Positions 18,204-29,225 of a DNA stretch of 32,000 nucleotides are shown piece after piece. Made by a program: the position numbers and the translations under genes. The notes below the pieces were generated by a model. The model did no database searches. It had not been told where the DNA came from and saw nothing but the letters and a program-made list of their open reading frames with translations. Each line of letters begins with the position of its first letter. Within the stretch, counting starts at the first letter, position 1. The stretch comes from Acaryochloris marina MBIC11017 (GTDB lineage: Bacteria; Cyanobacteriota; Cyanobacteriia; Thermosynechococcales; Thermosynechococcaceae): the NCBI RefSeq assembly GCF_000018105.1, contig NC_009925.1, positions 4,410,001-4,442,000 of the forward strand. The letters are read 5' to 3'.

Positions 18204-19949
18204 ATGCTCACCAAACTTGTCCGCTTCTTGGGCTCAATTAAGCTGGCCGTCCCAGTACTGGGTGCGATCGCAAGTATCTTAATTTGGGCGACGTTCTATG
18301 AGAGCAAGGTAGGGTCCCTTGTCGTCCAGCAGCAAATCTATAAGAGTCCCTGGTTTGGGGCCTTGATGTTTCTGCTAGCGGTCAATTTGGGGGTTTCCAC
18401 CCTCTCCCGTTATCCCTGGCGAGGGGCGCGGAAAGTGGGCTTTGCCCTCACCCATTTGGGATTAATCGTGCTGATTGCAGGGTCTGCAGCGGTGATTCAC
18501 CTCGGTGTGGAAGGACTTTTACTAGTCCGTACCGATCAACCAGCGAACCATTTGGTTCGGGTTGAGGGGGAATTATTAGAAGTGATGGATGACCAAGGCC
18601 AAGTACAACAGGCAGCGGTGATGGTAACGCCTGAGCGAATTATTTCTCCCACTCAATTCGCTGGGTTAAGGTTGTTGGACTATATCGAGAATTCCGTCGA
18701 AACGGTTGAATATCGTGACGGTGATGCCCAGGATGATCCAGCAATACGGTTGGTATTGAGTAGCGATCGCATGGGTCAAACCTTTGATCAGTGGTTATCG
18801 CCCGCTGCTGAAACGGTAGATTTGGGGCCAGCCCAACTGGAACTGTGGCAAGCTGCCAATCAGACCGATCTCCAACAGCTCTTGACCGATCCAACCCAAC
18901 AGCAAGCCCGCCAATCTGGAACCCTGATGTTCAAGATGGGAGACGTAGATACCCCGTTGGCCATTGATGACTTACGCCGTCAGGATGCCGTCATTAATGA
19001 TATCCAGGTTCACTTACTGAACGTGTGGCCTGATTTTCGCTTGGATGACCAGAATCAGCCGATCACAGCGTCTCAGGATTGGCGAAATCCAGCCTTAGAA
19101 GTAGAAGTGACCCAGGCCGATCTGCAAGAACGCTGGTTTGTCTTTGCTCAAGCTGGGCCGATCTTGGCGGGGGATGAGTCTTTACTGGATTTGGATTGGG
19201 AGTATCAAATCCCACCGCCCCCGACTAGCGACTACTTCCGAGTCGTGGTTGCCAATCAAAAGCTCTATTATGCAGCCCGCTCCTCTAAGTCTTTTACATC
19301 AGGGCCTTTGGTGATGGATCAAATGATTCAGCCGGGCTGGGCAGATTTTAAAATCACCCTGGCAGACTGGCTTCCCCATGGGAAGCGGATCCAAGAGCGC
19401 CTTCCCGCTCCATCTGGTGTTGAAGGAGTTCCGGCGTTGCAGGTGGCCTCAGCGGATGGGCAGCAATGGCTGACCTGGGGGGACTCAGCACTGATTGCCG
19501 ATGGTGCGCACCCTAAAATGGCGGCCTTTGGCCCTCGCATGCTGGCCTTACCCTTTCGGGTGGGTCTGGATGATTTTGTCGTTGAACGGAATGAAGGTAG
19601 CGACTCGGTGGCCATGTGGACGAGCCAAATTCGCATCGAAGATCTTCAGGGAGAATCTGCTCAAAAACGGTCGGTCTGGATGAATCATCCCACCTGGTAC
19701 CAGGGATGGAAAATTGCCCAAGCCTCTTGGAATCCTGGCGATTTGAACCAGTCCACCCTGCAAGTTAAACGGGAACCCCTATGGGTGACCGCTTTGACCT
19801 GGAGTGGCGCTTTACTGACCGTATTAGGGGTTGGCGTTATGTTTTATGGCCCGACCCTATTCAAAAAACGGTCAGCGGTGTTGGAGCAACCCACTGAGCC
19901 GATCACGGCTGAACCCACCCCTCTGCCCCTTGCACCTCAGGATGGATAA
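18204..19949 (+). CDS. ResB/Ccs1-like cytochrome c biogenesis protein (System II), long form
   Basis: 581 aa. The N-terminus LVRFLGSIKLAVPVLGAIASILIWATFYES, a second TM, a His-containing TM (LTHLGLIVLIAGSAAVIH), a large soluble loop and a C-terminal TM match ResB/CcsB topology. Its stop overlaps the next gene's start (TAATG). Confidence 0.75.
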   Translation: MLTKLVRFLGSIKLAVPVLGAIASILIWATFYESKVGSLVVQQQIYKSPWFGALMFLLAVNLGVSTLSRYPWRGARKVGFALTHLGLIVLIAGSAAVIHLGVEGLLLVRTDQPANHLVRVEGELLEVMDDQGQVQQAAVMVTPERIISPTQFAGLRLLDYIENSVETVEYRDGDAQDDPAIRLVLSSDRMGQTFDQWLSPAAETVDLGPAQLELWQAANQTDLQQLLTDPTQQQARQSGTLMFKMGDVDTPLAIDDLRRQDAVINDIQVHLLNVWPDFRLDDQNQPITASQDWRNPALEVEVTQADLQERWFVFAQAGPILAGDESLLDLDWEYQIPPPPTSDYFRVVVANQKLYYAARSSKSFTSGPLVMDQMIQPGWADFKITLADWLPHGKRIQERLPAPSGVEGVPALQVASADGQQWLTWGDSALIADGAHPKMAAFGPRMLALPFRVGLDDFVVERNEGSDSVAMWTSQIRIEDLQGESAQKRSVWMNHPTWYQGWKIAQASWNPGDLNQSTLQVKREPLWVTALTWSGALLTVLGVGVMFYGPTLFKKRSAVLEQPTEPITAEPTPLPLAPQDG

Positions 19950-21649
19950 TGAATCAACTGCAATTTTTATGGGGACTCTGTCTGGCGTTGGCCTTGGCGG
20001 TCACCCCTATCAGTCAATGGCAACCCCCAACCCAAACAGCGATTGATACCCTGGCTGTTCAGCTGGATGGTCGCAAAAAGCCCTTAGATACAGTGGCCCG
20101 GGAAACCGTCACCACGATTCATGGGTCATCGCGATATCAACTGGCTAGTGGTGAGGTTTTAGATGCGCCACAAATCTATTGGTCTTTGTGGCTAAACAGC
20201 CGGAATTGGAATGACGAGCCCTTTGTGCTGGTCAATTATCGCCCCCTCAAGGCCCAATTGGGACTGCCCTTGGAGCAAAAGCACTTTAGCTTTTCTACCC
20301 TGATCAATTCTAATTTGGGTCTAATCTTGCAACAAGCCCATACCAAACAGCTGCAAGAGCAACCCCTGACACGAGATGAACGAGAAGCTCTGACGCTTGA
20401 AGATCGCCTTAATTTGATGTTGGATACGGTTGGCAGCCAAAGCCTGCCTCTGGTGCCCCATCCCATGGATATCAAAGGAACTTGGGTCGGGATTACGGAT
20501 ACTGAACAGCTTTATCCGCCTGAGATGGCAGCCAAGATTCAAACCCAGTTTGAGCAGCTCAACCAGCAGTATCAAGCTCAGAGAGATGATTTAGACTCTT
20601 TGGCGGAGCCTGCGGCTCTATTGCAGCAGTCCCTAGCAGACTTAAGTCCTGAGATTTATCCAGCAATGGCCACGTTGCAACGGGAAGCCTTTTTCAATCA
20701 CTTCCATCCTTTTGGTAAAGCATGGAAACTGTATGGGATAGCATTCCTGGTCCTCCTCACTAGCCAACCCATTTCTAGCTTTAACTTGTATTGGACTGGC
20801 ATGGGAACCTTCCTCGGAGGCATCTTGATCCAAGCCTTTGGCTTTGGCCTGCGCATGCAAATTGCAGGCCGTCCTCCCGTTACCAATATGTATGAATCCG
20901 TGGTTTGGGTTGGCTTTGGGATTGCCGCCTTAGCCTTTTGCTTCGAGCTTCAGACCCGAGCCCGTTCCTATCTGTATGCGGCGGCTCCCCTTGCCGTCGT
21001 GTGCCTGCTGCTGGCCGATAGTTTACCTGCAGTTTTGGACCCCAGTATTGAGCCCTTAGTGCCCGTATTGCGAGATAACTTTTGGCTCAGTATCCACGTC
21101 CCCACGATCACCCTTAGCTATGCCAGCTTTGCTTTGGCCATGGGATTAGGGCATTTGGCATTGGTGCAATATTGGCGACACCCCCAGGGAGGGTCAACCG
21201 CCAGCGCCCTGTCCCGGCTTAATACTCGCGTCATTCAAGTGGGAATATTGCTGCTAACGACAGGCATTATTTTGGGCGGCATCTGGGCGCATTTTTCCTG
21301 GGGGCGATTTTGGGGTTGGGATCCAAAAGAGACCTGGGCTTTAATTGCCTTGCTTTGCTATTTAGCGCCTGTTCATGGTCGTTTAGCGGGTTGGTTAGGA
21401 CAATTTGGTATGAATGTGGCCAGTGTCTTAGGGTTTAATGCCGTACTGATGGCTTGGTATGGCGTTAATTTTGTGTTGGGAACAGGATTACATAGTTATG
21501 GATTCGGTACGGGCGGTTCTGCAGTGCTGATCACCGGTTTAGTCGGTATGGATAGCTTATTTGTGTTGGCAACCATTCTCCGCTATCGTTCTCAGCAGCA
21601 TCGTAGTGCTTCTCCCTCGGTGCCTGAAGTGCAAACTGCTGATGCTTAA
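19949..21649 (+). CDS. CcsA/ResC-like cytochrome c assembly (heme-handling) protein with a roughly 250-aa N-terminal extension
   Basis: 566 aa. Trp-rich heme-handling motif WGRFWGWDPKETWALI. Conserved TM histidines (SIHVPTITLSY, YLAPVHGRLAGW). N-terminal signal/TM followed by a soluble domain ahead of the 8-TM core. Confidence 0.85.
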   Translation: MNQLQFLWGLCLALALAVTPISQWQPPTQTAIDTLAVQLDGRKKPLDTVARETVTTIHGSSRYQLASGEVLDAPQIYWSLWLNSRNWNDEPFVLVNYRPLKAQLGLPLEQKHFSFSTLINSNLGLILQQAHTKQLQEQPLTRDEREALTLEDRLNLMLDTVGSQSLPLVPHPMDIKGTWVGITDTEQLYPPEMAAKIQTQFEQLNQQYQAQRDDLDSLAEPAALLQQSLADLSPEIYPAMATLQREAFFNHFHPFGKAWKLYGIAFLVLLTSQPISSFNLYWTGMGTFLGGILIQAFGFGLRMQIAGRPPVTNMYESVVWVGFGIAALAFCFELQTRARSYLYAAAPLAVVCLLLADSLPAVLDPSIEPLVPVLRDNFWLSIHVPTITLSYASFALAMGLGHLALVQYWRHPQGGSTASALSRLNTRVIQVGILLLTTGIILGGIWAHFSWGRFWGWDPKETWALIALLCYLAPVHGRLAGWLGQFGMNVASVLGFNAVLMAWYGVNFVLGTGLHSYGFGTGGSAVLITGLVGMDSLFVLATILRYRSQQHRSASPSVPEVQTADA

Positions 21650-21699: not shown

Positions 21700-22626
21700 A
21701 TGGCCGTTCTCACACCGGAAGAGGTGCAAACGAAAGTTCAACAGGGCATTTCTTTACAAGGAGCAGAACTCAGCAATATCAATTTGCAGGGATTCTCCCT
21801 GGATGATGGTCATTTCCCACAAGCCTATTTACGGGTGGCGAATTTATCCCAAGCCTCCTGTAATCGAGCCGATTTTACGGAAGCGATCTTGATCTTTGCA
21901 ACCCTCACGGGAATTAGCTTGCAGGATGCATTACTAACGGAAGCTCAATTTACCTCTGCCCGCCTTGACTCGGCTAATTTGATGGGGATTCATGGCGTGA
22001 AGCTCAAACTGCATGGTGCCCATTTGGATCAAGCGAATGCGGCCACAGCCATTTTGGAGTCGGTGGATTTAGCAGAAGCCACTGGCCAGTATGCCTCCTT
22101 CAGAGATGCCATTTTAATCAGAGCTGATCTGTCTCAGGGCGATTTCAAGGGGGCTAACTTTAGCCGAGCGAAGCTCAATGATGCCAATTTGAGTCAGGGA
22201 CAATTCTCAGAGGCCATTTTTGCCCATGCCCGCTTGGAACGGTCTCGCTTTGTACAGTCCAATTTACAAAAAGCAGATTTTACTGGGGCTGATTTAATCG
22301 GCAGTAACTTAGAGCAGGTCAATTTACAGGAAGCACAGCTACAGCAGGCCAGTTTTGATCATGTGCTCTTAGGGCAAACTTGTATGCGCGACGCTCGGTT
22401 GAACCATGCCTCTTTCTATAGTGCTCATTTAGAGCAGGCTGACTTAACGGGTGCTCAAGTAGAGCAGACAGATTTTCGGGATGCCAATTTGGAAAACACT
22501 CAACTTCACAACGTTGATTTTTTTAACACCATTGTGTCTGGCGCAATCTTTACCGATGCTAAAGGATTATCCAGTGAGCAGAAAGTACTACTGCGAAAAC
22601 AGGGCGCTCTAAATGTCCCTAAATAA
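21700..22626 (+). CDS. Pentapeptide-repeat protein
   Basis: 308 aa made almost entirely of A(D/N)LxX-type pentapeptides (ANLSQ ASCNR ADFTE AILIF ATLTG ...). Confidence 0.9.
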   Translation: MAVLTPEEVQTKVQQGISLQGAELSNINLQGFSLDDGHFPQAYLRVANLSQASCNRADFTEAILIFATLTGISLQDALLTEAQFTSARLDSANLMGIHGVKLKLHGAHLDQANAATAILESVDLAEATGQYASFRDAILIRADLSQGDFKGANFSRAKLNDANLSQGQFSEAIFAHARLERSRFVQSNLQKADFTGADLIGSNLEQVNLQEAQLQQASFDHVLLGQTCMRDARLNHASFYSAHLEQADLTGAQVEQTDFRDANLENTQLHNVDFFNTIVSGAIFTDAKGLSSEQKVLLRKQGALNVPK

Positions 22627-22988
22627 TGTATCTTTTTATACTTTTTTATTGGGCGTATTCTTTGCTAGAGAAACCGTAATTACTGATGTAATTTTTGCAT
22701 TGAAGTTATGCAATCGACGACTTTTATATAGTGTTAATTGTATTAATTGATACGACTCGACTGGTAATTATTTTTTACCTTTGAAGGCATATTTTGAATC
22801 TGCAGCTTAATGCTGTTTATGAATGTCAAAATTTCGACGATGCAACGCTTTGGGTGAAAGCATTTTGATGCTCGTTGAACGGTTGATGGTGCTTCGAGAA
22901 TGCTGTGAATCGGTGTTGCGATCGCACTCATCTCACTCTACTTTCTATTTCTCTTCTGAGGAATACCAAGATGACCTAACCTAAATAA

Positions 22989-23039
22989 ATTTCAAGATCT
23001 TAAAAGAGGTACTTGATTGCTCTTTTAAGATCTTGAAAT
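22989..23039. repeat. Perfect 20-bp inverted repeat (11-nt spacer) in the AT-rich leader upstream of the globin gene; candidate operator or RNA hairpin
   Basis: ATTTCAAGATCTTAAAAGAG (22989-23008) and CTCTTTTAAGATCTTGAAAT (23020-23039) are exact reverse complements. Each arm contains the internal palindrome AAGATCTT. The centre lies about 177 nt upstream of the ATG at 23191. Confidence 0.8.
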
Positions 23040-23190
23040 AGAAAGAGGAATTTCCCCTTAAGGAAGAGATGCTTGATCTGAATTTATCCCACTGAACAGC
23101 TATTAATCCCACCTTTGAAAAAAGATTAGACTCGGTTCAATTAATCTTTTGAATTAGCCCTTGAGCCCCATATCTTCAATAGGTAAATCT

Positions 23191-24207
23191 ATGACCTTAC
23201 AAGTTGAAATCCTTGAAAGTAGCTTTGAGAAAGTAAAACCTCAAGCTAATGAATTTGTTTCAAGTTTTTATAATCACTTATTCACGGATTACCCAGAGGC
23301 TCAACCTCTTTTTGAGGGAACAGACATGGAGAAGCAAGGTGGCAAGCTCTTGCAATCTCTGGTATTGGTGATTGAGAATTTGCGCAAACCTGATGCGTTG
23401 GGTAATGCTCTCAAAGGTCTGGGAGCCCGACATGTGAAATATGGGGCCTTACCGGAGCATTACCCCTTGGTGGGAGCGACCTTACTGAAGACGTTTGAAC
23501 AATACCTAGGGGATGCATGGACTGAAGAGGTTCAAACAGCCTGGGTGGATGCCTACGGAGCCATTACCACCATCATGTTGGACGGTGCAGATTATTCAGA
23601 GGCAGATGTCCAGCTCAAACCAGAAGCGCCACCGACTGAATCCGGCTTGCAAGTTGAGCTATTGGAAACGAGCTTTGCCCAAGTGAAGCCTGTCGCTAAT
23701 GAGTTTGCGGATCGCTTTTACGAGAACCTGTTCACTGATTATCCCGCTGCCCAACCCTTATTTGCGAATACAGATATCAAACAACAAAGCAAAAAATTGC
23801 TGCAATCCCTCGTGTTGGTTGTTGAAAATCTGCGTAAGCCAGATGCACTAGGAGACGCCCTCACGGGACTGGGGGCTCGGCATGTGAAATATGGCGCTTT
23901 ACCGGAGCATTACCCCTTGGTGGGTAATACCCTGCTCAAAACCTTTGAGGAATTTTTAGGGACTGCCTGGACTGATGATGTCAAACAGGCTTGGGTCGAT
24001 GCCTATGGGGCTATCAGCACCATCATGTTAGACGGTGCTGATTATTCCACAGCAGATTTAGATTTGAATTCAGCCTCCCCCGCTGCAGCCGCCTCACCTA
24101 GCAGCTTCTCCAGTGAGGCTTCAGAGCCTGAGCGACCAACAGGATTGTTATTAGGGCTGGCAGGTGGCGGCATTATTGCGGTCATTATTGCCATTCTGTT
24201 GGTCTAA
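23191..24207 (+). CDS. Tandem two-domain globin (Vitreoscilla Hb/flavohemoglobin-type globin fold x2) with a C-terminal transmembrane anchor and no reductase domain
   Basis: Start moved to the ATG at 23191. Each domain has FY(N/E)xLFTDYPxAQPLF (B10 Tyr, CD1 Phe), KLLQSLVLV(I/V)ENL (E helix with Gln), LGARHVKYGALPEHYPLVG (proximal His) and AWVDAYGAI(T/S)TIMLDGADY. The domains are offset by exactly 150 aa. A Ser/Pro/Ala linker follows, then GLLLGLAGGGIIAVIIAILLV. Confidence 0.85.
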   Translation: MTLQVEILESSFEKVKPQANEFVSSFYNHLFTDYPEAQPLFEGTDMEKQGGKLLQSLVLVIENLRKPDALGNALKGLGARHVKYGALPEHYPLVGATLLKTFEQYLGDAWTEEVQTAWVDAYGAITTIMLDGADYSEADVQLKPEAPPTESGLQVELLETSFAQVKPVANEFADRFYENLFTDYPAAQPLFANTDIKQQSKKLLQSLVLVVENLRKPDALGDALTGLGARHVKYGALPEHYPLVGNTLLKTFEEFLGTAWTDDVKQAWVDAYGAISTIMLDGADYSTADLDLNSASPAAAASPSSFSSEASEPERPTGLLLGLAGGGIIAVIIAILLV

Positions 24208-24226: not shown

Positions 24227-24874
24227 GTGGCCAAAACGAAAAAATCTTTTTTGAGCTTATCGGCTCTATTTAATGTCAGAAATACTGTGATTGTGCTGTG
24301 TTTAATTTTGATGGGTTGGTTGGGGGCCGCCTTTGCTTTAGACCACAAAACGATCTTTCTACCGGGCGTAACGTCTAATGGACATCTCTTATTTGAGGCG
24401 TCATGTGCCTCTTGTCATGAGGGGTTTAAGCCTGTGAGTAATGACACGTGCATGCGCTGCCATGAGGCAGAAATGGCAACGGATGCCCATGGACCCAAGA
24501 AGTTTCGAGATCTGCGCTGGGCTGCTGAACTAGAGAAATTGGAGGTATTAACGTGCACCACTTGCCACAACGAACATGTGCATATGTTTGATCGCGGGGT
24601 GCATCTAAAACCAGATCTCTGCATGATTTGCCATGAAGGCATTATTCAAGGGGAATTGGCCAGTCATAAAGGGTTGTCACCGGATGGATGTTGGACCGCT
24701 GGTTGCCACAATTACCACGACCATCGCAGTATTTCAACGGGCTTTTTACGTCAGAGTATGGGCCAAGCAGATATGTTGCCGAAGCCCGCATTACCGGCTC
24801 GCACGATTAAGCCTGAACTGGCGGCACCCCCTCAGCCTGACTTGGATAAAGAGCTTCTCGGAGGGCGGGCATGA
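24227..24874 (+). CDS. Membrane-anchored multiheme cytochrome c with five heme-attachment sites (4 CXXCH + 1 CX4CH)
   Basis: CASCH (24404-24418), CMRCH (24449-24463), CTTCH (24554-24568), CMICH (24620-24634) and CWTAGCH (24689-24709). N-terminal signal anchor TVIVLCLILMGWLGAAFA. The start is uncertain: GTG at 24227 is preferred over ATG at 24164, which would overlap the globin TM by 44 nt. Confidence 0.8.
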   Translation: MAKTKKSFLSLSALFNVRNTVIVLCLILMGWLGAAFALDHKTIFLPGVTSNGHLLFEASCASCHEGFKPVSNDTCMRCHEAEMATDAHGPKKFRDLRWAAELEKLEVLTCTTCHNEHVHMFDRGVHLKPDLCMICHEGIIQGELASHKGLSPDGCWTAGCHNYHDHRSISTGFLRQSMGQADMLPKPALPARTIKPELAAPPQPDLDKELLGGRA

Positions 24875-25653
24875 GGAGCTGGCTTCTAAGAGGGGTGTTG
24901 TTATTGCTGCTCTGGAATGGGTTGACGGTTTCTGTCTTGGCGGTTGATCAGGCTCAGCTCCAGTCTATCAATCAAAGCTGGTCCCAAAGTGCTCATGCCT
25001 TAGCTGACGTGAACTGTTCGAGCTGTCACCAGAATAAATCCACGAAACAGGTGCTGAAGCGGCCCAATCATGAAAGCTGTCAATCTTGCCATAAAGCGCA
25101 AGTGGATACCTTTTTACTCGGTAAGCATGGTATCCGCCTCTTGGAAGGACAAACGGCACTCACCCCTGCCTTGGCCCATCTGCCGATGCAAGCAGCTGCC
25201 CATGACAAACAGATGAACTGTAATGCTTGTCATGACGTTCATTCAGTGAAAACGTTACCCGCCTCGGTTGACTCTTGTCTGACCTGCCACAAGGACACCC
25301 ATTCACTGAACTACAAGAACTCCCGACATGGGCAATTGCTGCAAGAAGAAGGGGCACTTCCCCGGCCTTCGACTGTTTCAACGACTTGTGCGACTTGCCA
25401 CCTGCCCCGCCAAACATCGGCATCGGGGACGGTGACGGTCAACCACAACAATACCTTCACGTTACTGCCACGCGATCGCATGGTGAAAGAGGTCTGTATG
25501 AATTGCCACGGCATGGAATTTGCCTACAACAGCATTTTTGATGATGACTTAGTGGAATCGAATTTTGCCCGACCCCCTACCTTATCGATGGACACTCTGA
25601 AAATGGTGCGTGCGCTAGAACAACAACGGTCGGGCAATTCCAAATCAGAGTAA
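24871..25653 (+). CDS. Secreted hexaheme cytochrome c (paired-CXXCH type)
   Basis: 260 aa. Signal peptide MRSWLLRGVLLLLLWNGLTVSVLA. Six CXXCH motifs: CSSCH, CQSCH, CNACH, CLTCH, CATCH, CMNCH. Its ATG overlaps the upstream stop (ATGA, 24871-24874). Confidence 0.85.
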   Translation: MRSWLLRGVLLLLLWNGLTVSVLAVDQAQLQSINQSWSQSAHALADVNCSSCHQNKSTKQVLKRPNHESCQSCHKAQVDTFLLGKHGIRLLEGQTALTPALAHLPMQAAAHDKQMNCNACHDVHSVKTLPASVDSCLTCHKDTHSLNYKNSRHGQLLQEEGALPRPSTVSTTCATCHLPRQTSASGTVTVNHNNTFTLLPRDRMVKEVCMNCHGMEFAYNSIFDDDLVESNFARPPTLSMDTLKMVRALEQQRSGNSKSE

Positions 25654-25703
25654 TCCATCCCATCGAAACGAATCAGATGCATCTCATTGAGAGGAGACAC
25701 AAG

Positions 25704-26357
25704 ATGACTTTGACACGAAATTGGTTTAGAACGTTGCGTTCCAGAACCCTCGGCTTTTTTGCCCTAGCTGCAGCCATTTGTTTCACCGCTGTGGCCTGTA
25801 GTGGGGGTGCCGAATCCCAGGCTACTGGGGGGGTAAAACCCGAATTAGTGGCTGATTATATCCATACTGCTTTAGCTTCCGATCGAACGGCCTATACCAA
25901 GCATGTGGTTAACCGAGCCAAAAAACTAGAGGGTAAGCCCAAGAAAGATGGTGTGCTGGCCATTGAAGCCACCGAAGGCTGGGAAAGCAATGATGGTATT
26001 CCTTTGCCTGCTCAAATGTTTCGGCTCGGATCTGAGATTGCCTCCGAAGCAGACACGGCTTTTACCTATAACCTGATCTCAACTTGGTACATTAACGACG
26101 CTCAAGGTCCTAAAAATGATTTTGAGAAAAAAGCCATCCAACAGGTTGAGAAAACGGGTGAACCTTTCAAGGAGTACCAGGAAGTAGGAGGTAAGAAGTA
26201 TTTTTCGGCCCTCTATCCCGATAAGGCAGTAGCAGAAGCCTGTATTACTTGTCATAACACCCACCCTGTACACAAAGAACGCTATCCCGATAAGGTCTTC
26301 AAAATGGATGATGTGATGGGCGGCATCATGATCAATATTCCTTTGGAAGGTGCTTAG
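25704..26357 (+). CDS. DUF3365-type c-type heme lipoprotein (Tll0287-like PAS-like heme domain)
   Basis: Start placed at the ATG at 25704, preceded by GAGGAG. Signal peptide with lipobox (FTAVA-C). Single C-terminal CITCH followed by GGIMINIPL, plus the LPAQMFR pattern typical of DUF3365. Confidence 0.7.
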   Translation: MTLTRNWFRTLRSRTLGFFALAAAICFTAVACSGGAESQATGGVKPELVADYIHTALASDRTAYTKHVVNRAKKLEGKPKKDGVLAIEATEGWESNDGIPLPAQMFRLGSEIASEADTAFTYNLISTWYINDAQGPKNDFEKKAIQQVEKTGEPFKEYQEVGGKKYFSALYPDKAVAEACITCHNTHPVHKERYPDKVFKMDDVMGGIMINIPLEGA

Positions 26358-26496: not shown

Positions 26497-27105
26497 ATGA
26501 AGCCTAGGTTTTCAACTCTTATTATTCTGACGTTAGTGGTCGCAGCTATTTTGACCCCCTTTGCATTAAGTGGGGTTTATATTCCGTTGCTGCGCGATCG
26601 CAACTTCAATGCCTTGATCGTTCTACAAACGGATCTGTACAAGTTGATTACGGGGTTTGTCGTTCTGGCCCTTGTCTTTTTTGAACTGGCCCTCGCACTG
26701 CGTAAACGAGGGCGCCGGTGGAAAATTGCAGTGCCGGGTTCTATTTTGTTGTGGCGCAGCTTGCATATTTTTGTCGGTGTCGCTTTAGTGGCCACCGTTT
26801 TGCTCCATACCGGTGGTGCGGTTGGCGATAACTTTAATGCTCTCTTTCTCTGGGTGTTCTTTGGCGTCGCCCTATCAGCCCTAATGGGCGTGGTTGCAGA
26901 AACGGGCATTTTAGAATCTTCCCAGAAATACTTTGGGTTGGTGCCTCAAAGCTGGCAGGGTTTAGCGAAACGGTTCCCCAAGGTTTCGAAAGGGCCTCTC
27001 ATTCGCAAACTGCGTGCGATTTGGTTATCAACCCACATTATCTTGGTCAGTATGTTTTCCGTCATGCTTGGGTTTCACATTTTTGTGGCCTTTTATTTCC
27101 AATAA
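26497..27105 (+). CDS. Five-TM membrane protein, putative diheme b-type cytochrome (DUF4405-like)
   Basis: 202 aa. His90/His104 in TM3 (H-IFVGVALVATVLL-H) and His180/His194 in TM5 (H-IILVSMFSVMLGF-H) are two H-X13-H pairs, the spacing used for bis-His heme b ligation in cytochrome b of bc1 complexes. Confidence 0.5.
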   Translation: MKPRFSTLIILTLVVAAILTPFALSGVYIPLLRDRNFNALIVLQTDLYKLITGFVVLALVFFELALALRKRGRRWKIAVPGSILLWRSLHIFVGVALVATVLLHTGGAVGDNFNALFLWVFFGVALSALMGVVAETGILESSQKYFGLVPQSWQGLAKRFPKVSKGPLIRKLRAIWLSTHIILVSMFSVMLGFHIFVAFYFQ

Positions 27106-27129: not shown

Positions 27130-27153
27130 AGAGGGCGGTAAACACCGCCCTCT
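27130..27153 (-). terminator. Rho-independent terminator of groEL
   Basis: AGAGGGCGGT/ACCGCCCTCT forms a 10-bp GC-rich stem with a 4-nt loop. On the minus strand it is followed by TTTTTTGTTC. It lies 27 nt past the groEL stop. Confidence 0.75.
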
Positions 27154-27179: not shown

Positions 27180-28811
27180 CTAGTAATCGAAGTCTCCACC
27201 CATGCCAGCACCGGTAGGAGCATTTTCCTTCGGCTCAGGCTTATCAGAAATAATGCACTCAGTGGTGAGGACCATACCAGCAATAGAAGCGGCATTTTGC
27301 AGCGCAGAACGAGTCACCTTTGCAGGATCGACAATGCCAGCGGCAAACATATCCGTGAACTCATTCACTGACGCATCAAAACCGACATTGAACTCTTTTT
27401 CACGAACGCGTTCAGCGATAACGGCACCATTTTGGCCAGCATTCTCAGCAATGCGCTTTAGAGGTGCAGTTAAGGCCCGTTCAACGATAGTGGCACCAAT
27501 CAGCTCTTCGCCAGTTAAGTTATCCGCAGCCCAACTTGCAAGTTGAGGACCAAGATGAGCCAAGGTGGTTCCACCACCGGGAACAATCCCTTCTTCAACA
27601 GCCGCTTTAGTGGAGTTGATGGCATCTTCTAGGCGGAGCTTTCGATCCTTCATCTCAGTTTCAGTGGCAGCACCGACTTTGATCACCGCAACACCACCGG
27701 CCAATTTAGCCAAGCGCTCTTGCAACTTCTCTTTATCGTAGGAAGACTCGGTCTCATCCATTTGACGACGAATTTGCTCGCAGCGAGCTTGGACGTCGGC
27801 CTCATTGCCTTCGGCAACAAGGGTAGTGGTGTCTTTCGTGATGGTGATGCGACGAGCTTGTCCCATCATTTCTAGCTTGGCAGTCTCTAGTTTGAGACCT
27901 GCATCTTCAGTAATCACCTGACCACCAGTCAAGACTGCAATATCTTCCAGCATGGCTTTACGACGATCGCCGAAGCCAGGTGCTTTCACGGCAGCTACAT
28001 TCAACACACCCCGTAAACGGTTGACGACGAGGGTGGCTAAGGCTTCTTTCTCAATATCCTCAGCAATCACCAACAAGGGCTTACCTGCCCGTGCAGCCTG
28101 CTCGAGTACAGGCACTAAATCTTGCACGAGGGTAATTTTCTTGTCGGTCAGTAGGATGTAGGGCTCGTCTAGCACAGCTTCCATCCGCTCTGTGTCAGTC
28201 GCGAAATAAGGAGAAATATAGCCTTTCTCAAAGCGCATCCCTTCAGTGACCTCCAATTCGGTGGTCATGGACTTGCCTTCTTCAAGGGAAATAACGCCTT
28301 CTTTGCCAACCTTATCCATCGCATTGGCAATCATTTGGCCGACTTCATCGTCATTACCTGCAGAAATCGTTCCCACTTGAGCAATGGCGGTGGAATCTTC
28401 AACAGAGCGAGCATTCTCAGCGATTTTCTCTACAAGAAAGCCAGCAGCTTTCTCAATGCCACGCTTGAGGGAAATTGCATTCGCACCCGCAACTACGTTG
28501 CGCATCCCTTCTTTGACCATGGCATGGGCAAGGACGGTAGCTGTTGTGGTGCCATCTCCTGCGGCATCATTCGTTTTGGAAGCCGCTTGACGAATCAGGG
28601 CAACCCCTGTGTTCTCAATGTTGTCTTCTAGTTCAATTTCCTTAGCAATGGTGACACCATCATTGACAATCTGAGGGGCACCAAATTTCTTTTCTAGAAC
28701 AACATTGCGACCTTTAGGGCCTAATGTCACCGCAACAGATTCACATAGAATATCCATCCCTTTCTCAAGGGCGCGACGAGCATTCTCGTTATAAATAATG
28801 CGTTTAGCCAT
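27180..28811 (-). CDS. groEL: Chaperonin GroEL (Cpn60)
   Basis: 543 aa. [40 protein letters not shown] and a Gly/Met-rich C-terminus. Located downstream of groES. Confidence 0.97.
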
Positions 28812-28913
28812 GGAAGCTCAACCTCAAACTTAAAGGAGTAACAGCGAAGTTAGACAAAATAAAATTGCCCAGTTGAATGGGCAGAACGAATCGAAGGATG
28901 ATATTACGCTTGT

Positions 28914-29225
28914 CTAGTTGACGATCGCCAAAATATCTTTTTCAGAAAGCAGTACATACTCTTCACCGCCGAGCTTGACATCTGTACCGGCGTACTTGGA
29001 ATACAGAACTTTGTCGCCTTCTTTGACATCTAAGGCTTGGCGAGATCCATCGTCGCCCCGCTTACCTGGGCCAACAGCAGTAATTTCACCCACCTGAGGC
29101 TTCTCTTTGGCCGCATCGGGCAAAATAATGCCACCTGCAGTTTGCTCTTCTGCAGCACTGACTTTGACGAATACGCGATCACCTAAAGGCTTGACTGTAG
29201 AGACGCTTAAGGAAATAGCTGCCAT
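28914..29225 (-). CDS. groES: Co-chaperonin GroES (Cpn10)
   Basis: 103 aa. [12 protein letters not shown]...GGIILPD...GEITAVGPG...[11 protein letters not shown] is the canonical Cpn10 pattern. Confidence 0.97.

Follow-up and report, generated by a model that had tools for sequence, protein, structure and literature searches.

A split undecaheme cytochrome c in a globin-linked cyanobacterial operon with a putative role in a nitrogen-regulated redox chain

Two adjacent genes in a cyanobacterium, Acaryochloris marina MBIC11017, encoding the multi-heme cytochromes MHC5 and MHC6, very probably specify the two halves of a single undecaheme cytochrome c that other phyla make as one polypeptide. The genes lie in a stretch of 32,000 nucleotides (NC_009925.1, positions 4,410,001 to 4,442,000 of the forward strand), which we call the window throughout, and belong to an operon that also encodes a tandem globin, a heme-Cache protein and a predicted di-heme membrane protein. 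On balance, the whole is best explained as a nitrogen-regulated transmembrane redox chain, probably for the handling of nitric oxide (NO) or related N-oxides.

Results

Two overlapping genes encode multi-heme cytochromes

The first open reading frame (ORF1, MHC5) starts with GTG at 24227 and encodes 215 amino acids, a length shared by nearly all of its homologues. An alternative GTG at 24164 would give a longer ORF1 that runs into the upstream globin gene, and it is an unlikely start. The N-terminus of ORF1 is positively charged and contains a single transmembrane (TM) helix at about residues 11-38; the heme-binding motifs are CASCH (C60), CMRCH (C75), CTTCH (C110), CMICH (C132) and the atypical CX4CH site CWTAGCH (C155-H161). 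ORF2 (MHC6), with 260 amino acids, has a signal-peptide-like N-terminus and the six motifs CSSCH, CQSCH, CNACH, CLTCH, CATCH and CMNCH. The ORF1 stop codon overlaps the ORF2 start codon in the ATGA at 24871-24874. The overlapping ORFs, their motifs, the CX4CH site, the N-terminal anchor and the signal peptide are all where the original prediction, a reading of this DNA alone, had placed them. That reading had also described the motifs as doublets 15-25 residues apart, which is roughly right for spacings of 15, 22 and 23 in ORF1 and of 21, 19 and 36 in ORF2.

A six-frame translation of the 32 kb (about 64,000 residues) contains 19 CX2CH or CX4CH strings, 12 of which fall within 24404-26255 in three consecutive genes. 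This clustering excludes a chance origin of the heme motifs.

Homologous cyanobacterial loci were collected by a genome scan with one genome per species, which gave 80 loci, nearly all labelled as cyanobacteria and a few as 'uncultured bacterium'. Conservation was counted in 79 ORF1 and 80 ORF2 sequences from these loci and in 80 full-length sequences of the fused form described below. All 15 cysteine and histidine positions of the ORF1 heme motifs are kept in 79/79 aligned sequences, and all 18 positions of ORF2 in 80/80; the CX4CH site follows the consensus C-W-T-[AGS]-G-C-H. Loss of these motifs in homologues was one of the points on which the original prediction had said that it might fail. 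It did not fail there, and with every motif invariant in about 80 homologues each, its assignment of both ORFs to genuine exported c-type multi-heme cytochromes is one that we share on the strength of their sequences.

Five further histidines of ORF1 (H53, H88, H117, H147 and H164) and six of ORF2 (H42, H86, H124, H144, H153 and H192) are invariant as well. The 11 heme motifs are matched by exactly 11 spare histidines, which stand at the same positions in the alignment of the fused proteins. This is how an electron wire with bis-His ligation at all hemes would look, and it argues against an open catalytic heme.

The two cytochromes correspond to one fused protein in other phyla

We searched a profile of ORF2 against 1.84 billion representative proteins and obtained 108 representative clusters at E<=1e-30, most of the long ones having 400-480 amino acids. 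Most of the long relatives carry the ORF2 module at residues ~200-450 with an ORF1-like module in front, in the order N-terminal TM helix, ORF1-like module, linker and ORF2-like module. The ORF1-like module starts with FLPGxTSxGH and holds a C-x-x-x-G-C-H-N-[YF]-H-D-N site, found as C-x-x-[AGSV]-G-C-H-N-[YF]-H-D-N in 77/80 fused relatives; ten CXXCH motifs and one CX4CH motif are present in 77 of the 80 full-length sequences. In pairwise alignment with an undecaheme protein of 478 amino acids from Burkholderiales, ORF1 is collinear with residues 44-206 (40% identity, E 6e-32) and ORF2 with residues 241-476 (39% identity, E 3e-59).

Because both ORFs align collinearly with one fused protein, we are highly confident that they are the two halves of one split undecaheme wire in this operon. 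They had originally been taken for two independent cytochromes, a view that this result replaces. The fused form, membrane-anchored and about 450 amino acids long, comprises more than 2,500 clusters at 90% identity and occurs in Gammaproteobacteria, Burkholderiales, Entotheonella, Methylomirabilota and others. We define the family by a split or fused architecture, ten CXXCH motifs plus one CxxxGCH site, and the operon partners described below; the window has each of these.

At its C-terminal end ORF1 carries a tail, P-x-x-D-L-x-x-E-F-L-G-G (24814-24870), that is conserved in the split form and whose position corresponds to the linker of the fused proteins. This tail might be a docking peptide that joins the two halves.

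Curated models of known cytochrome families

For family assignment, Pfam and NCBIfam scores were compared with the curated cut-offs. PF14537 (Cytochrom_c3_2) was passed by both ORFs (28.0 bits for ORF1 and 38.8 for ORF2, cut-off 25), a generic match that says only 'multi-heme'. ORF2 lies slightly above the cut-offs for MtrC/MtrF domain II/IV (35.9 vs 30), Cytochrome_C7 and Paired_CXXCH_1. It also reaches 25.1 bits vs 20.8 for cytochrome c554 (PF13435), in a match that covers only residues 69-122 and 56/84 profile positions.

Membership in the families to which the original prediction had looked fails at the curated cut-offs of all models tested: class III cytochrome c3, NrfH (standing for NapC/NrfH), c552 (for NrfA and octaheme nitrite reductase), and DmsE and OmcA/MtrC (for MtrA). 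For class III cytochrome c3 (PF02085), ORF2 scores 19.1 vs 22.9 bits and ORF1 has no match; the pair holds 5 and 6 hemes in 215 and 260 amino acids, vs a compact tetraheme fold of ~110-130 amino acids in c3. For the NapC/NrfH/CymA group, the NrfH model TIGR03153 gives 18.1 vs 134.2 bits for ORF2 only, and no NapC/NrfH Pfam model matches ORF1. NrfA and octaheme nitrite reductase have a catalytic heme bound by CXXCK, and hydroxylamine oxidoreductase (HAO) has a Tyr-crosslinked P460 heme. Neither ORF contains CXXCK, and the NCBIfam c552 models reach 13-16 bits against cut-offs of 595-692. The decaheme group of MtrA, DmsE and OmcA was rejected at 44.8 vs 192.2 bits (TIGR03508) and 21.4 vs 209.3 bits (TIGR03507), and the GSU2203 model is far below its cut-off as well. 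No beta-barrel, outer-membrane porin or surface cytochrome is found among the recurrent neighbours in the 80 cyanobacterial loci.

Searches of the PDB with the cytochromes, both with single sequences and with profiles, gave short, non-collinear di-heme matches only. For example, the profile matches to NrfA and octaheme nitrite reductase (E ~3e-10) consist of short di-heme segments in non-collinear order, and the best sequence match of ORF2 is an HAO-like protein of Kuenenia (6h5l, E 9e-6).

An operon of constant order in cyanobacteria

The operon runs in the order globin, MHC5, MHC6, Tll0287-like heme-Cache protein and 202-amino-acid membrane protein in 80/80 cyanobacterial loci, as far as the contigs extend (coordinates in Table 1). 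It is no rarity in the phylum, given its invariant presence in at least 80 species-level genomes. The carriers are mostly marine benthic or mat-forming cyanobacteria. The best-matching locus, from an Acaryochloris sp., has 92% identity and an identical gene order over ~12 kb. A tblastn search of a plasmid collection with the fused undecaheme gave no match. The base composition (GC content) of the cluster is native, for which reason we rejected a recent horizontal transfer; it is plausible that the cluster was acquired long ago and then inherited vertically.

Table 1. Features of the cytochrome cluster and its surroundings, in window coordinates
Feature	Position	Strand	Description
ResB/CcsB-like System II cytochrome c biogenesis protein	18204..19949	+	PF05140, E 2.6e-15
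CcsA/ResC-like heme-handling subunit	19949..21649	+	PF01578, E 1e-31
Pentapeptide-repeat protein	21700..22626	+	Pfam Pentapeptide, E 1e-47
NtcA-type promoter (predicted)	22740..22781	+	GTATTAATTGATAC (22740-22753), 22 nt, TACCTT (22776-22781)
Tandem flavohemoglobin-type globin	23191..24207	+	two domains, C-terminal TM tail, without signal peptide
MHC5, very probable N-terminal half of split undecaheme cytochrome c	24227..24874	+	predicted N-in TM anchor, 4 CXXCH + 1 CX4CH
CX4CH heme-binding site CWTAGCH	24689..24709	+	invariant in 79/79 cyanobacterial homologues
MHC6, very probable C-terminal half of split undecaheme	24871..25653	+	predicted Sec-type signal peptide, 6 CXXCH
Heme-Cache (Tll0287-like/DUF3365) c-type monoheme protein	25677..26357	+	PF11845, E 4e-21
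Five-TM four-His membrane protein	26497..27105	+	202 amino acids; H90/H104 on TM3, H180/H194 on TM5

The globin gene stands directly upstream of MHC5 in 76/80 loci, and in the remaining four the contig ends first. Its probable start is the ATG at 23191, which is indicated by the start-codon footprint in Acaryochloris; the ORF list has a TTG at 23161. The product matches Pfam Globin in two stretches (E 2e-38), and its best PDB match is HGbI of Methylacidiphilum (3s1i, E 2e-25), with Vitreoscilla hemoglobin and flavohemoglobins also found. TyrB10, GlnE7 and HisF8 are present in both domains (Y37/Q59/H91 and Y187/Q209/H241) and at least 95% conserved, and a TM segment is predicted at 330-348. Judged by these residues, the globin is of the flavohemoglobin type with an NO-dioxygenase-like pocket.

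Another match is to the globin domain in a nitric oxide synthase chain of 1468 amino acids (PDB 9q05/9q15, E 1.4e-7), a further case of this globin type coupled to NO chemistry. In ~12 cyanobacterial loci an extra single-domain globin gene follows the membrane gene.

The heme-Cache gene follows the cytochrome genes in 80/80 loci. Its product reaches 76.3 bits for PF11845 (cut-off 24.1) with an invariant CITCH motif, and H63, H196, M114 and M214 are invariant across the cyanobacterial and proteobacterial operon members. No cysteine outside CXXCH is conserved in the operon-linked subfamily; in cyanobacteria Cys41 lies in a lipobox, and the protein is probably a lipoprotein. PDB searches with this subfamily gave no match.

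The last gene encodes a membrane protein without a Pfam, NCBIfam or PDB relative. The two histidines of each pair are 14 residues apart, and all four histidines and an RKR loop are invariant. Two His pairs on two TM helices form the classic pattern for a transmembrane stack of two b hemes, and we predict that this protein is a di-heme b transmembrane electron-transfer module.

Most other cyanobacterial loci (L003-L080) carry additional genes, placed just behind those for the four-His membrane protein and the CcsA-like protein. They encode a membrane-anchored thioredoxin with a WCTTC motif in 58/80 loci, a Rieske [2Fe-2S] protein with a Tat signal in 38/80 and, in 14/80, a ChaN-like heme-binding lipoprotein. 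The window has no match to any of the three, and the Rieske gene is absent also from the two related Acaryochloris loci.

Related operons outside cyanobacteria

The fused form was studied in 86 non-cyanobacterial loci, 6 from an exact protein look-up and 80 from metagenomes, which were screened with the proteins of the neighbouring genes. The typical operon encodes a flavoprotein, the undecaheme, a heme-Cache protein, in some cases a monoheme cytochrome c, and a globin. Heme-Cache genes lie directly downstream of the fused undecaheme in 64/71 loci and flavoprotein genes directly upstream in 47/56, with a globin in 30/37 and a monoheme cytochrome c in 22/54. Genes of nitrate assimilation are often close by as well (16/28).

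The flavoprotein, of ~660 amino acids, has Pyr_redox_2, Rubredoxin_C and BFD [2Fe-2S] domains followed by a C-terminal domain of 4-5 TM helices that is homologous to the 202-amino-acid protein of the window (BLASTP E 2e-12), with the four histidines and the RKR loop shared. Directly upstream of the undecaheme gene, 61/86 loci have the four-His signature, and in 46 of the 61 the ORF that holds it has at least 550 amino acids. A stand-alone four-His protein appeared to replace the flavoprotein in some proteobacterial loci, and this candidate was rejected since most of the short cases are truncations of the fusion at contig ends.

Longer flavoprotein-TM fusions of 874-1285 amino acids are encoded in L162 (5148-8990), L136 and L146. 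Their extra several hundred residues lie between the BFD [2Fe-2S] domain and the membrane domain and are blank in Pfam in L162, the sole one scanned.

The window globin is 38% identical to a proteobacterial operon globin (E 7e-28), and heme-Cache members of cyanobacterial and proteobacterial operons share 38-43% identity. By sequence comparison, the proteobacterial operon contains orthologues of four of the five genes that make up the operon in cyanobacteria.

An NtcA-type promoter precedes the globin operon

In NtcA-activated promoters, GTA-N8-TAC precedes a TAN3T -10 box by about 22 nt. An element of this layout lies upstream of the globin gene, with a transcription start predicted near 22788; in three Acaryochloris genomes the element is conserved within intergenic DNA that has otherwise diverged. 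Among 71 globin-upstream regions, which come from related species and are not fully independent samples, GTAN8TAC occurs in 40, compared to 2-4 for five altered spacings, 5-12 for six other palindromic triplet pairs and 9.5±2.8 in shuffled sequences. The full arrangement, GTAN8TAC-N20-24-TAN3T, was found in 30/71 regions and in 0/71 with the N7 or N9 spacing controls. This enrichment would tie the cyanobacterial operon to nitrogen status, in line with the nas context in proteobacteria.

A second perfect GTAN8TAC string, GTATCTTTTTATAC, is located at 22628-22641, 2 nt past the stop codon of the pentapeptide-repeat gene; the main NtcA-type site lies ~110 nt further downstream. Of the two Acaryochloris relatives, L001 has kept this second string and L002 has not. 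The predicted long 5' leader of the globin operon also contains a perfect 20-bp inverted repeat, ATTTCAAGATCTTAAAAGAG, followed by an 11-nt gap and the complement (22989-23039), which is unique in the window and coincides with an insertion or deletion in the alignment with the two closest Acaryochloris loci. We dropped it as a conserved regulatory hairpin because it is absent from these closest relatives; it may be a small palindromic insertion or a hairpin peculiar to this strain. A comparison with Rfam gave no known RNA for the window or for the long leader.

A second cytochrome c synthase and other genes of the window

Upstream of the operon lie ResB-like and CcsA-like genes, which are found within the fetched flank in most cyanobacterial loci with enough flank. 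The ResB-like protein has conserved TM histidines, His84 and His99. In the CcsA-like protein, the WWD motif WGRFWGWDPKE and His383, 402, 448, 476 and 515 are conserved in 45 sequences. The CcsA-like protein scores 157 bits for TIGR03144, the equivalog model of the housekeeping CcsB, below the cut-off of 187.6, which marks it as a paralogue. From these features, we assign the pair to a System II cytochrome c synthase paralogue dedicated to the cluster. Proteobacterial relatives have the same CX4CH site and no dedicated synthase in the operon, for which reason the pair may serve location or load and not the chemistry of the motif.

The CcsA-like protein also has a conserved N-terminal extension of ~300 amino acids (19949-20850) after a signal or TM segment. 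Pfam gave no match for the extension, whose motifs include GRKKPLDTVA.ET and YRPLK, and ordinary CcsA proteins lack it.

The pentapeptide-repeat protein is a frequent neighbour of the cluster, with full-length homologues from 39/80 loci. Directly downstream of the operon, groES-groEL lie convergently on the minus strand (27180-29225), with pyrR and argH next; a strong terminator-like hairpin is present at 27130-27153. These are housekeeping genes unrelated to the cluster.

Discussion

Our preferred explanation combines two parts that we hold with different confidence. That the products form a transmembrane electron chain appears reasonably probable from their sequences; that this chain handles NO or another N-oxide is a tentative assignment of role. 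The split undecaheme would hold 11 hemes, probably with bis-His ligation, in a chain that is anchored to the membrane and lies on its outer (periplasmic or lumenal) side, with the tandem globin tethered on the cytoplasmic side. The di-heme membrane module would carry electrons between a cytoplasmic partner and the 11-heme wire. In proteobacteria this partner would be the covalently fused NAD(P)H/FAD/[2Fe-2S] flavoprotein, giving a series of NAD(P)H, FAD, [2Fe-2S], two b hemes, 11 c hemes and heme-Cache (with or without a cytochrome c). This flavoprotein-TM fusion, encoded directly upstream of the undecaheme, implies an export of electrons from the cytoplasm. In cyanobacteria, which lack the flavoprotein, the partner would probably be ferredoxin, the tethered globin or both. 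Cyanobacteria have nitrate and nitrite reductases that depend on ferredoxin, and those of proteobacteria use NAD(P)H.

At the end of the wire, the heme-Cache protein would receive the electrons and would be the site that reacts with ligands. Expression would be under nitrogen control, through NtcA in cyanobacteria and in a nas/NasT context in proteobacteria, and the likeliest job would be the removal or conversion of NO or a related N-oxide formed as a by-product of nitrate or nitrite assimilation, the globin serving the cytoplasm and the heme chain the periplasm. The role in NO handling is suggested by the NO-dioxygenase-type globin, the Bjgb-Flp precedent discussed below, the NO-binding of heme-Cache proteins without an axial cysteine, and the nitrogen-linked regulation. 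The sequences show the invariant cofactor motifs, the topology signals, the correspondence of split and fused forms, the synteny, the orthology of four components across phyla, the flavoprotein-TM fusion and the enrichment of the promoter motif; we infer cofactor occupancy, the direction of electron flow, the cyanobacterial cytoplasmic donor and the substrate.

Several points weigh against this explanation. NasT, NrtABC, NasA, NarK or NirBD lie within 6-9 kb in only 16/28 non-cyanobacterial loci, and the cyanobacterial loci have no flavoprotein, no monoheme cytochrome c and no nas genes; in cyanobacteria the sole link to nitrogen is the promoter motif, counted in the related species mentioned above. 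The occupancy of the heme sites, their bis-His ligation and the presence of b hemes are read from sequence, and AlphaFold2 models of both cytochromes, made from 21-sequence alignments, were unusable (predicted local distance difference test 44, predicted TM-score 0.24). No catalytic site was identified in the system. The heme-Cache protein has invariant histidines and methionines that could occupy the sixth coordination position; it would then be no more than a carrier of electrons.

In an alternative that develops the original prediction, the cytochromes would be laterally acquired wires of the Geobacter or Desulfovibrio type, which a mat-dwelling cyanobacterium would use for anaerobic respiration or extracellular electron transfer to metals, sulfur oxides or electrodes. 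The generic Pfam matches of both ORFs and the MtrC/MtrF, Cytochrome_C7 and Paired_CXXCH_1 matches of ORF2 agree with this reading, as do hemes that all look bis-His, the di-heme TM protein as an electron-export module, and the benthic or mat-forming habit of most carriers. We nevertheless consider it unlikely: the DmsE, OmcA/MtrC and GSU2203 models remain far below their cut-offs, the GC content is native, porins and surface cytochromes are missing from the recurrent neighbours of 80 loci, and the proteobacterial orthologues lie in aerobic nitrate-assimilation operons. The context of globin, NO-related heme-Cache protein, NtcA-type promoters and nas neighbours points instead to nitrogen-regulated chemistry of NO or N-oxides. 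Somewhat more improbable is a novel bc-type quinol oxidoreductase. As its cytochrome b, the four-His protein would oxidise plastoquinol and reduce the membrane-anchored c hemes, acting together with the Rieske protein that many loci encode for export by Tat. The four histidines, paired at a distance of 14 residues on each of two helices, do resemble cytochrome b/b6, the Tat-signal Rieske gene is present in 38/80 cyanobacterial loci, and there are weak local matches to ActA of Alternative Complex III. However, the Rieske gene is missing from the window and two related Acaryochloris loci, Pfam and PDB give no detectable homology to cytochrome b families, and in other phyla the TM domain is fused to an NAD(P)H/FAD/[2Fe-2S] reductase, which points to a cytoplasmic donor and not to a quinol.

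The cytochromes might themselves be the enzyme, with ORF2 or the pair belonging to the superfamily of NrfA, octaheme nitrite reductase and hydroxylamine oxidoreductase. Some databases automatically name relatives 'nitrite reductase c552 subunit', and the PDB matches to the Kuenenia HAO-like protein, NrfA and octaheme nitrite reductase go in the same direction. These matches are nonetheless short, non-collinear di-heme segments, the c552 models score far under their cut-offs, and with no CXXCK and a conserved spare histidine for each heme there is no evident open coordination site; a catalytic role of this kind is very improbable. We give least credence to a sensor, in which the heme-Cache protein and the globin would detect NO, O2 or the redox state and the multi-heme proteins would do no more than poise or relay that state. 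Both Cache and globin domains often occur as sensor modules, and fused heme-Cache domains act as NO sensors. Against this, the core operon contains no kinase, methyl-accepting chemotaxis protein (MCP), GGDEF or DNA-binding output in 166 loci, stand-alone heme-Cache proteins have been assigned redox and not sensing roles (bioRxiv 10.64898/2026.02.01.703092), and 11 hemes, two b hemes and a dedicated heme-attachment machinery would be a heavy investment.

To our knowledge, cyanobacteria are usually described as being without multi-heme cytochrome wires. The original prediction was well founded in placing these real, conserved wires outside the textbook electron-transfer inventory of the phylum; what it missed is the split undecaheme, the globin-linked operon, the di-heme module and the heme-attachment machinery. 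Together these would make up a system of 16 hemes (11 + 1 of c type, 2 predicted in the membrane as b type and 2 in the globin) with its own heme-attachment machinery, and thousands of protein clusters in proteobacteria and further phyla hold orthologues. The components are of known kinds (multi-heme cytochrome c, globin, heme-Cache protein and System II synthase). In the literature that we searched, we found no paper describing a globin-linked undecaheme cluster, its assembly or its orthologues.

If the proposed redox chain is correct, it would be a new route that sends cytoplasmic reducing power across the membrane and a new player in the turnover of NO or N-oxides linked to nitrate assimilation, with relevance for N2O and NO emissions, for the nitrosative-stress tolerance of marine mats and for the wiring of cyanobacteria to electrodes. 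That the operon encodes an undescribed transmembrane electron-export machine, common to cyanobacteria and several further phyla, that would act as a new periplasmic NO/N-oxide reductase and possibly as a nitrogen-status-controlled electron valve in cyanobacteria, and that NtcA or NasT would turn on along with nitrate assimilation, is a more doubtful proposition. For the heme-Cache (Tll0287) family, in which no function has been assigned to the stand-alone members, the operon supplies a genomic context and a partner that can be tested; it also offers a natural split/fused pair for the study of multi-heme protein assembly.

Comparison with known systems

Among multi-heme cytochromes, the pair resembles NapC/NrfH/CymA and the cM552-c554 relay in having a single N-terminal TM helix, behind which the c hemes would be packed closely on the outer side; as in cM552-c554, a membrane-anchored multi-heme protein is paired with a soluble one. 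It differs in its 5 + 6 hemes compared to 4 + 4, and from NapC/NrfH in that the NapC/NrfH fold model gives no match and that the membrane partner is a separate di-heme protein and not a quinol site on the cytochrome. With class III cytochrome c3 of Desulfovibrio, in which CX4CH is used alongside CXXCH, it shares dense heme motifs of the bis-His type, while size, heme number, membrane anchoring and context are different. Other undecahemes (UetJ, OccP and UndA) occur in contexts with porins or NHL repeats and are set apart here by context only. Wolinella employs dedicated System II heme lyases, NrfI and CcsA1, for unusual heme motifs; the cluster similarly has a second CcsA/ResB-type synthase beside a multi-heme client with a non-standard motif.

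NOX enzymes pass electrons from NAD(P)H via flavin and two b hemes, held by His pairs on two TM helices, to an acceptor across the membrane. The flavoprotein-TM fusions would follow the same logic of flavin and two b hemes as NOX and MsrQ-type proteins, which belong with the NADPH oxidases and ferric-reductase-domain proteins. Unlike these, they have no sequence similarity that we could find, the flavoprotein is N-terminal (the reverse order), a [2Fe-2S] BFD domain is added, and a c-type chain of 12-13 hemes would take the place of O2 or a small partner as acceptor; the cyanobacterial TM module is a protein of its own.

The heme-Cache protein is like Tll0287 (PDB 5B82) in its PF11845 match, invariant CXXCH and stand-alone exported form. 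Tll0287 and a P. putida protein are reported to have a cysteine as axial heme ligand, and heme-Cache proteins without this cysteine bind NO tightly, whereas Cys-ligated ones do not (bioRxiv 10.64898/2026.02.01.703092). In the operon-linked subfamily the axial cysteine is not conserved. The same study mentions no gene neighbourhood or multi-heme partner.

Finally, in Bradyrhizobium's narK-bjgb-flp-nasC operon, the single-domain globin Bjgb and the flavoprotein Flp detoxify NO inside a nitrate-assimilation operon, protecting against the NO made by the assimilatory reductase, and both are controlled by the nitrogen/nitrate regulator (PMC4724949). Our system differs in adding the undecaheme, the heme-Cache protein and the predicted di-heme TM domain on the flavoprotein, and its cyanobacterial version lacks the flavoprotein and has a duplicated, membrane-tethered globin. 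The proteobacterial relatives are nevertheless alike to Bjgb-Flp in combining a globin and a flavoprotein with NasT/NrtABC/NasA surroundings.

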